Sequence record: NC_001317.1
Length of the DNA stretch: 30,624 nucleotides
DNA from: Escherichia phage 186
Strand: one strand, 5' to 3'
This document shows, piece by piece, positions 18,891-23,011 of this stretch. The notes under the pieces were generated by a model. The model was not told the origin of the DNA and ran no database searches. It worked only from the letters and a program-made list of their open reading frames with translations. The first letter of the stretch is position 1, and each line of letters starts with the position of its first letter. The translations under genes were made by a program, and so were the position numbers.

Positions 18891-19376
18891 ATGATGCTTG
18901 CGCTTGGAATGTTTGTGTTTGAACGTCGCACCCTGCCTTATCAGTCGATGCAGCACTCGAAGGATTACCGCTGGGCGTCTAATGACCGGGTGGGTAAGCC
19001 GCCTGCTTATCAGTTTCTCGGCGAGGGGGAAACGTCGATACAGCTTGCCGGTACACTGTACCCAGCCATCACCGGCGGCTGGATCTCACTAAAGGCTGTA
19101 GAGGTAATGGCTAACGAGGGCAGAGCGTGGCCGTTGATTGAGGGAACTGGAAACATTTTAGGGATGTATATCGTCGATAAGGTGTCGACCACGCACGCCG
19201 AGTTTTTCAGCGACGGCGCTGCCAGAAAGATTGATTTCACCCTTTCGCTTAAACGGGTCGACGAATCACTGACGGCAATGTTTGGCGACCTGAATAAGCA
19301 GGCCAGCGAGCTTCTAGGCTCTGCCGGAAATCTGACTGATAAGCTGCAGAGTGCGCTCGGAGGACTGACCGCATGA
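18891..19376 (+). CDS. Tail protein (P2 gpU homolog)
   Basis: 161-aa ORF, SD GAGAGGA upstream; conserved position after the tape measure. Confidence 0.85.
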   Translation: MMLALGMFVFERRTLPYQSMQHSKDYRWASNDRVGKPPAYQFLGEGETSIQLAGTLYPAITGGWISLKAVEVMANEGRAWPLIEGTGNILGMYIVDKVSTTHAEFFSDGAARKIDFTLSLKRVDESLTAMFGDLNKQASELLGSAGNLTDKLQSALGGLTA

Positions 19377-20542
19377 TTACGGGCATGACTATTGACGCCG
19401 GAACTAGCCTTGCACCGGCATTTATGTTAACGCTGAACAGCCAGGACATTACCAGCAATTTTAGTGACCGGCTGATTTCTCTCACCATGACAGACAACCG
19501 GGGCTTTGAGGCTGACCAGCTCGACATTGAGCTCGACGACACCGACGGCAAAGTCGAATTACCACTGCGCGGGGCGGTGCTGACGTTGTGGCTTGGCTGG
19601 CAGGGTTCGGCGCTTCTGAATAAGGGCGATTTCACGGTCGATGAGATTGAGCACCGGGGCGCGCCTGATATCCTGACCATCCGCGCGCGTAGTGCAGACT
19701 TTCGCGGAACGCTCAATTCACGGCGTGAAGAATCATGGCACGATACTACCATCGGTGAGTTGGTCAGCACCATTGCAAAGCGCAATAAACTGACGGCCAG
19801 TGTCGCGGATTCACTGAAAAAAATTCCGGTACCGCATATCGACCAGTCGCAGGAGTCCGACGCCGTATTTCTGACCCGACTGGCTGACCGCAATGGGGCG
19901 ACGGTGTCAGTGAAAGCGGGGAAACTCCTGTTTCTGAAAGCCGGTAGTGCGATGACGGCCAGCGGCAAGCCCGTCCCGCAAATGACACTAACTCGCAACG
20001 ATGGTGACCGTCATCAGTTTGCTATTGCCGACCGTGGGGCTTACACCGGCGTAACCGCAAAATGGTTGCACACCAAAGACCCGAAGCCGCAAAAGCAGAA
20101 AGTAACACTGAAACGCAAGCCAAAAGAGAAGCACCTGCGCGCACTGGAGCACCCGAAAGCAAAGCCAGTCAGCAAAAAGACAAAGGCCAAAAAAGAGCCG
20201 GAAGCGCGCGAGGGTGAGTATATGGCCGGTGAGGCCGATAACGTGCTGGCGCTGACGACGGTCTACGCTTCTAAGGCGCAGGCGATGCGTGCCGCTCAGG
20301 CTAAGTGGGATAAGCTGCAGCGAGGCGTTGCGGAGTTTTCAATTACGCTGGCGCTTGGTAGGGCTGATTTATTCCCTGAGACACCGGTGCGCGTATCAGG
20401 CTTTAAGCGCGTCATAGATGAGCAGGCATGGTTAATCAGTAAGGTAACTCACAATCTGAATAATAGCGGCTTCACGACGGGCTTAGAGCTTGAGGTTAAA
20501 CTCTCTGATGTGGAGTACAACGCGGAATCGGATGATGAATAA
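19373..20542 (+). CDS. Tail protein (P2 gpD homolog)
   Basis: 389-aa ORF overlapping the gpU stop, SD GGAGGA upstream; last gene of the late tail operon. Basic KPKPQKQKVTLKRKPKEKH region. Confidence 0.88.
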   Translation: MITGMTIDAGTSLAPAFMLTLNSQDITSNFSDRLISLTMTDNRGFEADQLDIELDDTDGKVELPLRGAVLTLWLGWQGSALLNKGDFTVDEIEHRGAPDILTIRARSADFRGTLNSRREESWHDTTIGELVSTIAKRNKLTASVADSLKKIPVPHIDQSQESDAVFLTRLADRNGATVSVKAGKLLFLKAGSAMTASGKPVPQMTLTRNDGDRHQFAIADRGAYTGVTAKWLHTKDPKPQKQKVTLKRKPKEKHLRALEHPKAKPVSKKTKAKKEPEAREGEYMAGEADNVLALTTVYASKAQAMRAAQAKWDKLQRGVAEFSITLALGRADLFPETPVRVSGFKRVIDEQAWLISKVTHNLNNSGFTTGLELEVKLSDVEYNAESDDE

Positions 20543-20608: not shown

Positions 20609-20827
20609 ATGTTTCATTGTCCGAAGTGCCATCATGCCGCACATGCGCGAACAAGCCGCTATCTAACCGAAAACACGAAAGAACGCTACCACCAGTGCCA
20701 GAACATCAACTGTAGTTGTACGTTTATGACAATGGAAACGATAGAGCGCTTTATTGTTACTCCGGGAGCCATTGACCCGGCACCGCCTCACCCGACTGTC
20801 GGTGGTCAGCGGCCATTGTGGCTCTGA
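20609..20827 (+). CDS. B: Ogr/B-family zinc-finger late-gene transcriptional activator
   Basis: ORF-track start 20567 replaced by the ATG at 20609, giving a 72-aa protein MFHCPKCHHAAHARTSRYLTENTKERYHQCQNINCSCTF... with the C-x2-C...C-x4-C zinc-binding pattern of P2 Ogr. Symbol B follows my recollection of phage 186 nomenclature. Confidence 0.9.
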   Translation: MFHCPKCHHAAHARTSRYLTENTKERYHQCQNINCSCTFMTMETIERFIVTPGAIDPAPPHPTVGGQRPLWL

Positions 20828-20844
20828 TAAATTTCCGCTAAATG

Positions 20845-20866
20845 CCCGCCGCGTGCGGGTTTTTTT
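20845..20866 (+). terminator. Rho-independent terminator after the late activator gene
   Basis: CCCGC-CGCGT-GCGGG hairpin followed by TTTTTTT, 18 nt after the stop codon. Confidence 0.65.
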
Positions 20867-20932
20867 ATGCACTCAGGAAAGTGGCGGTAAAAAATCCACC
20901 GCCATTCTATCGCCACTCGAAAACGAGGCAAC

Positions 20933-20957
20933 AAAAAGGCCACTCGAGAGAGTGGCC
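20933..20957 (-). terminator. Minus-strand hairpin plus U-run just beyond the att core (terminator for leftward int-operon transcripts; sib-like position)
   Basis: Perfect 8-bp stem GGCCACTC/GAGTGGCC with a 4-nt loop; on the minus strand it is followed by TTTTT. Lies on the far side of the att core from int. Confidence 0.45.
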
Positions 20958-20984
20958 TAACTGTATGTATTTACTACTTAAATT

Positions 20985-21030
20985 TGGTGGCCCCTGCTGG
21001 ACTTGAACCAGCGACCAAGCGATTATGAGT
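20985..21030 (-). other. attP core: 46-nt segment identical in form to the 3' end (anticodon loop to CCA) of a tRNA-Ile(CAU)-type gene
   Basis: The minus strand reads ACTCATAATCGCTTGGTCGCTGGTTCAAGTCCAGCAGGGGCCACCA: anticodon loop with CAT, T-arm GGTTCAAGTCC, acceptor 3' strand and CCA. No 5' half of the tRNA is present, so this is an attachment-site fragment, not a tRNA gene. Confidence 0.8.
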
Positions 21031-21156
21031 TCCTACAAGAACAACCGAAAATCAATAGTATGCGTTATTTATCATTGACATAGATTGCCATTGTTTGCCA
21101 ATAATTACCTATTATTCGCCATTTCTACCGCCACTTTATCGCCATTCTATTATCTG

Positions 21157-21408
21157 TTACTCAGAACCATCGCCGACATAGGTTCCATCAGGTGCGAGAT
21201 GATATCTTCCACCAACATAAGTCCCATCTGGGGCAAGTGTTGGGCGGCCAGCAACATAACTTCCATTTGGCGCTAAGCGTGGAACGCCACCGACATAAGT
21301 TCCATCGGGTGCAAGGCGTGGTGCTCCTCCTCCAACATAAGTCCCATTAGGGGCAAGCATAGGTTGTCCGTAAACATAGGTACCATCAGGTGCTAATCGA
21401 ACTGACAT
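21157..21408 (-). CDS. Small tandem-repeat protein (six roughly 13-aa LAPDGTYVGG-type repeats), function unknown
   Basis: 83-aa ORF with a strong SD (GGAGG, 4-nt spacer) 14 nt downstream of the integrase stop. Protein is MSVR followed by repeats LAPDGTYVYGQPM / LAPNGTYVGGGAPR / LAPDGTYVGGVPR / LAPNGSYVAGRPT / LAPDGTYVGGRYH / LAPDGTYVGDGSE. Confidence 0.6.
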   Translation of the reverse strand: MSVRLAPDGTYVYGQPMLAPNGTYVGGGAPRLAPDGTYVGGVPRLAPNGSYVAGRPTLAPDGTYVGGRYHLAPDGTYVGDGSE

Positions 21409-21422
21409 ACAACCTCCATAAC

Positions 21423-22433
21423 TTATTTGCTGTTAGTAATGTGAACTAAAGGATTTAGTTTAACTGCATCCTCTAAATGGTCGGGTGCAAAGTGCGCATA
21501 TCGCATGGTCATTTTTATATCTGTATGGCCGAGTACGCGCTGCAACACCAAAATATTACCGCCATTCATCATAAAGTGACTAGCGAAGGTGTGACGTAAA
21601 ACGTGGGTAAGTTGTCCTGCCGGTAGTTCGATACCTGTTCTTTCCAAAGCTGACCGGAACGCGCCATAACAATCACTGAACAACCGGCCCTTTTTATCAT
21701 CAGGCAGAGACTCATAGAGCTCTTTGCTGATTGGGACGGTGCGATTTTTTCTACCTTTCGTGTTGGTGTATGTGATTTTGTATTTCGCGAGTTGGCTTTT
21801 TCTCAGACTCTCGGCCTCAGACCACCGTGCGCCAGTTGCGAGACAGATTCTTACCACGGTTTCTAAATCAGGGTGGTCATGTCGGTTACACTCTCCGAGC
21901 AGTTGCGAAATTTGGTCGTGAGTTAGCCAAGTCATTTCCATTTCTTCTGTGCGGAATGGGCGCATATTTTTTAGTGGGTTTTCACCCTTCCATTCTCCGA
22001 GGCGGTTTAGCTCATTGAACACCGCCCGGAAGTAGGCCAGCTCAAGATTAAGCGTGCGAGGCGATACCTCTTTCACTCTGTTTGAACGGGCATACTCACC
22101 TTTTAACCGTTTTTCTCGGTAGCGGGAAAACATCTGCGCATCGAAATCGCGTGCGAGTGGTTCGCCCATACACTCAAAAGCATGGTGCATGGCTAACTGG
22201 CGTTTCAAACCATCTTTCAGTGTAATGCCATGAGCGCTATACCATGAATCAACCAGCTCTTTTAACGTGCGCCTGTCTTCCTTTTCTTCCTGCCACGGGT
22301 TTTGAACGGTGTACTGCTCAAACGCCAGAGCCTCGCCTTTAGTAGCGAATTTCTTTCTGATACGTTTGCCTTTTGCACCGTTTGGGTAGAGTTCACAAAT
22401 CCAACCGCCAGCCGGATTTTTACGGACGGTCAT
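21423..22433 (-). CDS. int: Tyrosine integrase
   Basis: 336 aa with tyrosine-recombinase motifs: LATGARWSEAESL (Arg), HVLRHTFASHF (His-x-x-Arg), LGHTDIKMTMRYAHF (His and catalytic Tyr). Adjacent to attP; its start overlaps the repressor stop. Confidence 0.95.
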   Translation of the reverse strand: MTVRKNPAGGWICELYPNGAKGKRIRKKFATKGEALAFEQYTVQNPWQEEKEDRRTLKELVDSWYSAHGITLKDGLKRQLAMHHAFECMGEPLARDFDAQMFSRYREKRLKGEYARSNRVKEVSPRTLNLELAYFRAVFNELNRLGEWKGENPLKNMRPFRTEEMEMTWLTHDQISQLLGECNRHDHPDLETVVRICLATGARWSEAESLRKSQLAKYKITYTNTKGRKNRTVPISKELYESLPDDKKGRLFSDCYGAFRSALERTGIELPAGQLTHVLRHTFASHFMMNGGNILVLQRVLGHTDIKMTMRYAHFAPDHLEDAVKLNPLVHITNSK

Positions 22434-23011
22434 TAGTTAACCTCGCTGTATACACCCACCACACGCCCCAACGTTTTAATATCATCAATGCCGCATTCGA
22501 AAGGAACCTTCCCGCCTGCAACATGTAGTTTTCTACCCGGTAGTTTTGTTAACTCTCGAATGCTTATTGCTCCCTCAATGTCGACTAGCCATAAGCCGTC
22601 AGACAATGATGCTTGCTTGTCCACAAAATAAATTTTCCCCTCGGAACGGATAGCCATCCCATCTGTGAGCGGTTTTGTGAAAAATTGGGCATCAACACTC
22701 AATTGTTTATCGGATTTGAGGATTTCTTCACTTAATGTGAATCCCTCAATCCTTTTTGCGTCGCTCGATTCTCTGTTATTTACAAATGCTTCTCCTTCTC
22801 CGGTAAGTAACCACTGGAGATTAGCACCTGTTTCAAGGGCACAGTGAGCCGCAAAGTCATAGGAGATAGCGCCTCGGGTGTACCTGTTTGACAATGAGCT
22901 GGACGCGATATCGAAGTGGTTAGCTAATTGAATTTTCTGCGAAAATCCGTACGCCTCGCAGATGCGGTCAAGTACATCCACGTTGCTCCATCCTAAAGAA
23001 TCTATTCTCAT
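22433..23011 (-). CDS. cI: Lysogeny (immunity) repressor, 186 CI-type
   Basis: 192-aa ORF MRIDSLGWSNVDVLDRICEAYGFSQKIQLANHFDIASSSLSNRYTRGAISYDFAAHCALETGANLQWLLTGEG...: N-terminal HTH domain plus C-terminal domain. Divergent from the early operon and co-transcribed with int. Size and sequence match my recollection of phage 186 CI (P2 C is only about 99 aa). Confidence 0.88.
   Translation of the reverse strand: MRIDSLGWSNVDVLDRICEAYGFSQKIQLANHFDIASSSLSNRYTRGAISYDFAAHCALETGANLQWLLTGEGEAFVNNRESSDAKRIEGFTLSEEILKSDKQLSVDAQFFTKPLTDGMAIRSEGKIYFVDKQASLSDGLWLVDIEGAISIRELTKLPGRKLHVAGGKVPFECGIDDIKTLGRVVGVYSEVN
22725..22741. promoter_or_regulatory. Inverted repeat CTTCAC-N5-GTGAAT inside the repressor gene (putative flanking operator, left)
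   Basis: CTTCACTTAATGTGAAT, about 370 bp left of the switch region; same dyad as at the late-activator promoter and at 23404..23420. Confidence 0.45.

Follow-up and report, generated by a model that had tools for sequence, protein, structure and literature searches.

An 83-aa open reading frame (ORF) made up of six short tandem repeats lies between the integrase gene and the attachment site of Escherichia phage 186. We analyzed it in a window of 30,624 nt (sequence record NC_001317.1), which is the whole stretch of DNA considered here. The explanation that we prefer, with a probability of roughly 0.6, is that the phage carries a cytoplasmic six-hairpin binding protein that is expressed in the lysogen, is optional cargo, binds a target rather than acting on DNA, and stands outside the integration machinery. 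The parts of this explanation that concern the gene, its family and its status as cargo are nearly certain, and the part that concerns its mode of action is tentative.

Position and repeat structure of the ORF

The initial annotation had described an 83-aa ORF with a strong Shine-Dalgarno sequence starting 14 nt past the integrase stop, consisting of six imperfect repeats of about 13 aa (LAPDGTYVGGxPR) encoded by tandem DNA repeats of about 39 bp. All of these features were confirmed on the minus strand (Table 1). The int stop codon TAA (21425-21423) is followed by a spacer of 14 nt (GTTAT-GGAGG-TTGT) and the ATG of the ORF at 21408. The deduced protein consists of MSVR and six units of 13, 14, 13, 13, 13 and 13 aa, each starting with LAP(D/N)G(T/S)YV; in order, these are LAPDGTYVYGQPM, LAPNGTYVGGGAPR, LAPDGTYVGGVPR, LAPNGSYVAGRPT, LAPDGTYVGGRYH and LAPDGTYVGDGSE. 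In the DNA, Tandem Repeats Finder reported a period of 39 nt (2.9 copies, 75% match) and one of 120 nt, and a repeat search found copy spacings of 39, 39 and 81 nt. The stop codon of the ORF (21157-21159) is 10 nt from the attP arm-type repeat, and the ORF is indeed the gene nearest to the att core. The observation made in the initial annotation is thus real, while its interpretation is partly supported by the results below.

The ORF, which we take to be the one labeled CP69 in phage 186, probably has an existing annotation in the source phage as a hypothetical ORF. The papers on 186 and Eganvirus that were consulted do not mention it, and literature searches for CP69, 6BHPP (the Pfam family described below) and the repeat peptide yielded nothing usable.

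Table 1. Features around the ORF in the window, in order of position, and loci of relatives embedded in T6SS clusters.
Feature	Position	Strand	Remarks
Tail gene D	19373-20542	+	P2/186-type genome
Ogr/B zinc-finger activator	end at 20827	+	followed by a terminator
Terminator-like hairpin	20937-20958	-	first one downstream of the ORF, just beyond the tRNA half
tRNA-Ile(CAU)-like gene, 3' half	~20985-21029	-	anticodon loop to CCA; att core region
Arm-type direct repeat of attP, TCTACCGCCACTTTATCGCCATTC	21124-21147	+	pairs with 20895-20918; conserved in EtG and GCS667
Cargo segment, ~300 bp	21148-21449 (to within a few nt)		ORF, Shine-Dalgarno sequence and new int C-terminal codons; absent from EtG and GCS667
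83-aa ORF	21157-21408	-	ATG start; six predicted beta-hairpin repeats; 8.4 kDa, pI ~5.6; no signal peptide
Shine-Dalgarno sequence GGAGG	21413-21417	-	4 nt upstream of the ATG, within the int-ORF spacer 21409-21422
Tyrosine integrase gene int, 336 aa	21423-22433	-	C-terminal residues past ...KLNPL unlike those of relatives, marking the left edge of the cargo insertion
cI, 186-type CI repressor	22433-23011	-	presumed to head the lysogenic operon cI-int-ORF
T6SS-embedded 6BHPP loci	L003 4805-6748; L036 4721-6282; L051 1142-1647		

The attachment site

The attP direct repeats TCCACCGCCATTCTATCGCCACTC and TCTACCGCCACTTTATCGCCATTC flank the tRNA-like core, with 229 bp separating the two, and a 16-nt inverted repeat is also found at attP (20878-20893 and 21122-21137). 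The direct repeats carry the motifs ACCGCCAYT and ATCGCCAYT and are probably Int arm-type sites, conserved in phages EtG and GCS667. The tRNA half matches tRNA-Ile and 'tRNA-OTHER' loci of E. coli genomes; ARAGORN reported no complete tRNA. Because the tRNA 3' half is accompanied by its own terminator hairpin, integration would re-form the tRNA, with the 3' end and the terminator coming from the phage. A search with Rfam over 20700-21600 gave nothing near threshold. The isrK model matched window 20782-20865 on the plus strand at 21 bits against a gathering cut-off of 50; this match, over the 3' end of Ogr/B and its terminator, is probably due to chance.

Engineered K-12 strains (NZ_CP174267.1, L057 2501-2740, and other 'CM' strains) contain window 20982-21174, at 99.5-100% identity, joined to FRT and synthetic cargo (luxR and others), as expected of a 186-type attP integration scar. 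The fragment stops at 21174, which is 18 nt inside the 3' end of the ORF, and the ORF thus lies outside the attP fragment that is sufficient in cis for integration.

Evidence for a protein-coding gene

One intact orthologue was found, in an IMG/VR prophage (L055) with the gene order cII-apl-cI-int and an Int 91% identical to that of phage 186. It also encodes 83 aa, at the same place, 17 nt past the int stop, and is preceded by AGGAGGG. The two ORFs share 85% protein identity and 78% DNA identity, and for this single pair the dN/dS ratio is 0.12 (dN 0.116, dS 0.96), compared with 0.04 in int. The other five frames of the region are interrupted by stop codons in both phages. Within the ORF of phage 186 itself, the 10-aa core of the six repeats shows 69 synonymous and 27 non-synonymous codon differences, and the DNA identity among the repeats is only 60-75%. 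These comparisons mark the ORF as a genuine protein-coding gene under purifying selection. According to the initial annotation, a DNA-level element would be indicated if the ORF were broken or not conserved in relatives while the DNA repeat persisted; the opposite was seen, with the orthologue keeping its frame.

Alternatively, the 39-bp repeats could be a DNA element, such as additional Int, Apl or IHF sites extending the P arm of attP, with the ORF being incidental. They do adjoin attP immediately, and tandem direct repeats are typical of the binding sites of recombination directionality factors (PMC7498355). However, the repeats are conserved as peptide rather than as DNA, their differences being mostly synonymous, and they do not resemble the arm-type motif ATCGCCAYT. 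Their period of 39 bp also differs from the 10-11 bp of the Apl operators (PMC7498355). Moreover, the arm repeats end at 21147 and the att junction of the engineered strains at 21174, and sibling phages with near-identical int and attP have no such segment. We consider a DNA element extremely unlikely. The synonymous excess among the internal repeats, the prophage orthologue and the wider protein family described below all argue for a protein.

An optional gene between int and attP

In phages EtG and GCS667, a dozen Yersinia MHG/MDG phages, BIS20 and PHB48, both flanks of the ORF are matched and about 300 bp are missing. In EtG, whose int and attP have about 94% nucleotide identity to the phage 186 region, and in GCS667, the 3' end of int reads directly into the arm-type site. 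In the alignments, the ORF sits exactly where the 3' end of int meets the attP arm, and it replaces the last int codons. The cargo-less phages (L048 605-644 and L049 622-643, compared with window 21423-21449) encode the C-terminal tail of Int (...LNPLAVSGDKVAVE...) in the attP arm-type repeat. In three cargo-bearing phages, Int stops a few residues past LNPL, with the unrelated tails VHITNSK, SQINVN and ANN.

No copy of the ORF was found by tblastn and blastn in 5,426 complete E. coli genomes, 50,697 phage records and a plasmid set, and the exact protein sequence was absent from a collection of 15 billion proteins; the closest match in a metagenome scan had 79% identity. The GC3 of the ORF is 25%, compared with 48% in int. 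Klebsiella phage Kp4882-2 (OK490461.1; L050 130-1377) carries an unrelated AT-rich ORF of 415 aa in the same slot. Pfam returned nothing for this ORF, and PADLOC gave a weak similarity to DzbB from the Dazbog defence system (E = 6e-8), which suggests that the slot between int and attP is a hotspot for cargo or defence genes in P2-like phages.

The clean ~300-bp presence or absence between collinear relatives, together with the atypical composition, identifies the ORF as an optional, horizontally acquired accessory cargo gene of a 186-type (Eganvirus) temperate phage. Because sibling phages lack it, the ORF is not part of the core machinery of integration or lysogeny. The proposal that it is moron-like or lysogenic-conversion cargo at the prophage end is therefore upheld, although the promoter and terminator of its own that a classical moron would have were not detected. 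The optional genes old, tin and Z/fun of P2, which are lysogen-expressed cargo genes of P2-like phages, offer a parallel in principle. Like the ORF, they are non-essential, patchy or replaced among relatives and atypical in composition, and prophage expression is expected for both. The ORF differs from them in occupying the int-attP slot and in having no detected promoter or terminator of its own, and it has no sequence relationship to them.

Expression context

No terminator-like hairpin was found on the minus strand between cI, int and the ORF, and promoter-like matches for the ORF did not exceed the shuffled expectation. Since the ORF follows int directly with no intervening terminator, co-transcription with int is plausible, and because no promoter or terminator of its own was detected, the ORF appears to ride on the cI-int operon. 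In the lysogenic pL operon (cI-int-ORF) it is probably the last cistron to be transcribed, and the hairpin at 20958-20937 is likely to form the 3' end of this transcript in the non-integrated form. Translation would start from the strong Shine-Dalgarno sequence of the ORF on the lysogenic transcript. From this position and signal, we infer that the product is made in lysogens and is cytoplasmic.

The same arrangement could be read as that of an accessory factor coupled to int and serving site-specific recombination or int expression, for example a chaperone, a directionality modulator or an mRNA-stability element. The short distance to int, the strong Shine-Dalgarno sequence and the probable shared transcript agree with this idea, as does the recurrence of the int-ORF pair in the IMG/VR prophage. 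However, the ORF is missing from EtG despite its closely matching int and attP, the family consists overwhelmingly of secreted proteins from non-phage loci with no integrase nearby, and DNA-binding features are not apparent in the protein. A role in recombination or int expression is therefore improbable, and we favor a cargo gene that would share the transcript of int.

Membership in the 6BHPP family

A database search with the ORF product returned 201 proteins at E ≤ 1e-3 (best 3e-37; 66-73% identity), and all of the best 120 of these 201 matches listed carry the Pfam family PF27023 (6BHPP). Judged by its similarity to proteins assigned to that family, the ORF almost certainly belongs to this existing, uncharacterized family, and the initial view that the repeat was not a known domain has to be revised. 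A full HMMER scan of 1.84 billion representatives yielded 431 cluster representatives matching the ORF. 6BHPP is a rare family, spread over many phyla. No match was found among PHROGs, NCBIfam and the PADLOC defence models. A 'Klebsiella' match (L006) was considered as an enterobacterial orthologue and rejected, as it is a secreted homologue on a high-GC contig with no prophage.

The ORF shares with PF27023 proteins the (L/M/I)APDG(T/S)YVGGxP(R/Q) unit of 13-14 aa, usually in six copies, a repeat region of about 78 aa and, often, a short tail that is acidic or resembles GDGSE. In the ORF, both the sequence and the structural model described below show six hairpin units of about 13 aa in tandem, and six is also the family mode. 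Among 242 family proteins, 126 have six repeats; lower counts occur in many short or fragmentary entries, and counts above six came from spurious matches only. The copy number, whose variation among relatives the initial annotation had suggested checking, thus peaks at six and is practically never higher. Three complete-looking secreted members (P0102, P0110 and P0119) have three repeats; one may speculate that such proteins dimerize into a closed six-unit assembly.

Members of the family come from metagenomes and metagenome-assembled genomes of many phyla and are mostly secreted proteins of environmental bacteria. About 78% of 100 distinct 6BHPP sequences from the loci have a signal-peptide-like hydrophobic N-terminus. 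In some members repeats 1-2 and 5-6 contain Cys pairs, and some are found as the C-terminal module of a Sel1, ankyrin or lipoprotein chain. Whereas most 6BHPP proteins have a leader (of the signal-peptide or lipoprotein type) or are C-terminal modules, the ORF product is leaderless, phage-borne and encoded in a lysogenic operon. Given the leader in most relatives, the leaderless phage copy may act differently or have lost part of its activity. Leaderless proteins of 83-84 aa, however, recur in unrelated bacteria (L009, L011, L058, L067 and L096) and share the MxxxxL start and the VGDGSE end with the phage protein, which indicates that the leaderless state is a natural variant rather than an artefact.

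These observations bear on whether the ORF is a functionless or decaying passenger, that is, a gene for a secreted protein that lost its signal peptide at capture and has been drifting since. The missing leader and the rarity of the gene, with its one orthologue, would fit such a history, as would one copy that is interrupted beside an insertion sequence. In this copy, on metagenomic scaffold L138 (1-2076), the sequence is 100% identical to window 21614-21309; beyond that, the ORF is cut off at codon 33, and transposase genes of the IS3 family adjoin it. The break is either a natural IS disruption or a scaffolding artefact, misassembly being possible because the scaffold contains Ns; such an interruption is compatible with the ORF being dispensable. 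Against drift, the dN/dS ratio is low at a dS of about 1 between the two phages, which have kept the length, the six repeats and the Shine-Dalgarno sequence, and the leaderless forms of unrelated bacteria have the same start and end. We consider a decaying passenger unlikely and favor a functional, leaderless member of the family.

Predicted fold

The structure prediction that had been suggested gave a confident six-hairpin model. AlphaFold2 (AF2) with an alignment of 61 sequences reached a mean pLDDT of 96.4 and a pTM of 0.80, with twelve strands forming six hairpins. Most strands have three residues; those of two pairs, located in the first repeats, are shorter. Each unit consists of a strand x-R-L, a five-residue A-P-D-G-T turn, a strand Y-V-G and a two-residue G-G link. 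From the single sequence the pLDDT was 44, indicating that the confidence comes from the family signal. The ORF product is thus predicted to fold as six consecutive beta-hairpins in one compact domain, displaying six Tyr and six Asp/Asn residues. Considering the pTM and the repeat counts, the domain is probably closed; its units may be arranged as a ring or a curled sheet.

A Foldseek search against the PDB and BFVD found nothing at E < 0.1, the best match being choline-binding repeats with a TM-score of about 0.15; as modeled, the fold matches no solved structure in the PDB. Two readings of the periodicity in the initial annotation did not hold. A collagen-like repeat was excluded, as Gly does not occur at every third residue; the period is 13-14 aa, with Gly at unit positions 5, 9 and 10. 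An open beta-solenoid or fibre is at odds with the compact model, with a copy number capped at six and with solenoid matches at E > 0.1. Choline- and glucan-binding solenoids (the LytA C-terminal domain and glucansucrases) resemble the ORF in consisting of short beta-hairpins in tandem, with many aromatic and Gly residues. However, their repeats are about 20 aa long, vary in copy number and form an open superhelix, whereas the ORF family is capped at six and compact, and the rmsd to the ORF model is above 12 Å. The third suggestion of the initial annotation, a repetitive binding module, remains plausible in light of the model.

The Pfam scan of the ORF gave only a weak composite PD40 match (26.7 bits for the whole protein against a cut-off of 20.9), and the PDB sequence search gave only the PQQ-like propeller 3hxj (E = 6e-6), through repeated partial matches to a 'PDGTiYvG' hairpin. 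PD40 (PF07676) and PQQ-like blades share the x-A-P-D-G-T-x-Y-V-G hairpin motif with the ORF, but their period is about 38-40 aa rather than 13 aa, and their blades are four-stranded whereas the ORF has two strands per unit. The ORF matches the PD40 profile at positions 12-22 only, a single PD40 repeat never passes the cut-off, and a structural match was not obtained. With neither a full repeat of about 38 aa nor a four-stranded blade, a PD40/WD40-like propeller repeat was rejected.

Neighborhoods of related genes and a subfamily in T6SS clusters

The neighborhoods of 6BHPP genes are heterogeneous and include an alpha-2-macroglobulin/PBP1C operon followed by GmrSD, a Mu-like region next to a Type ISP restriction enzyme, and a secreted nuclease. 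No common partner gene was found in the neighborhoods of the closest leaderless homologues, which lie beside a TIR and HipA pair, an AAA_15 ATPase, Vsr with a methylase, and hydrogenase genes. Two genes upstream of one leaderless 6BHPP gene, at L058 193-606, is a gene for another secreted tandem-repeat mini-protein, of 137 aa, unrelated in sequence, with about eight copies of TDSFGNTT(Y/C)RDxxGNT(V/I)R.

One leaderless subfamily (about 71-83 aa, with alternating ...GDGGxI...) is located inside T6SS clusters. Its gene is divergent from tssA in L003/L004 and L036 (TssA 62% identical), genes for TssM, TagF and OmpA are adjacent, and in L003/L004 and L051 a PAAR gene follows it directly. A general linkage of 6BHPP loci to PAAR was rejected by tblastn; since the PAAR proteins are 91% identical, the linkage belongs to one T6SS lineage.

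These loci raise the possibility that the ORF product acts in the cytoplasm, as partner or antagonist, on contractile injection systems (T6SS and P2-like tails), for example on their spike or PAAR tip, and so serves the lysogen in exclusion or against T6SS. More broadly, 6BHPP would be an undescribed closed six-hairpin fold whose leaderless members partner or antagonize such systems, with the T6SS subfamily serving the machine and the phage copy binding incoming spikes or tips. The T6SS-embedded leaderless genes, their position next to tssA and PAAR genes, and the P2-type contractile tail of the carrier phage would agree with this. However, the linkage is confined to that one lineage, and the phage protein falls outside the T6SS subfamily, in the VGDGSE-ending subgroup, whose other members have no such neighbors. 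Both the specific role and its extension to the family are long shots. If true, the 186 copy would be a new kind of lysogen exclusion or anti-injection protein directed against P2-like phages, tailocins and T6SS.

Implications for phage 186 and the 6BHPP family

We return to the reading of the ORF product as a cytoplasmic, target-binding cargo protein of the lysogen. We guess that this small protein serves as a multivalent binding module, which would sequester or block a target that belongs to the host or a rival phage or that is injected, and would thereby confer an accessory trait on the lysogen. If the ORF proves dispensable, it would be just an ordinary moron.

For P2-like phages, the int-attP junction can be regarded as a slot for cargo, known in at least three states: empty, occupied by a 6BHPP gene, or occupied by the Dazbog-like 415-aa gene. 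Phage 186 contains one of the best-studied genetic switches, and the ORF is the last gene of the presumed lysogenic operon in this model phage. Because both the phage and its host are fully tractable, the 186 copy is the easiest entry point to the function of the 6BHPP family.
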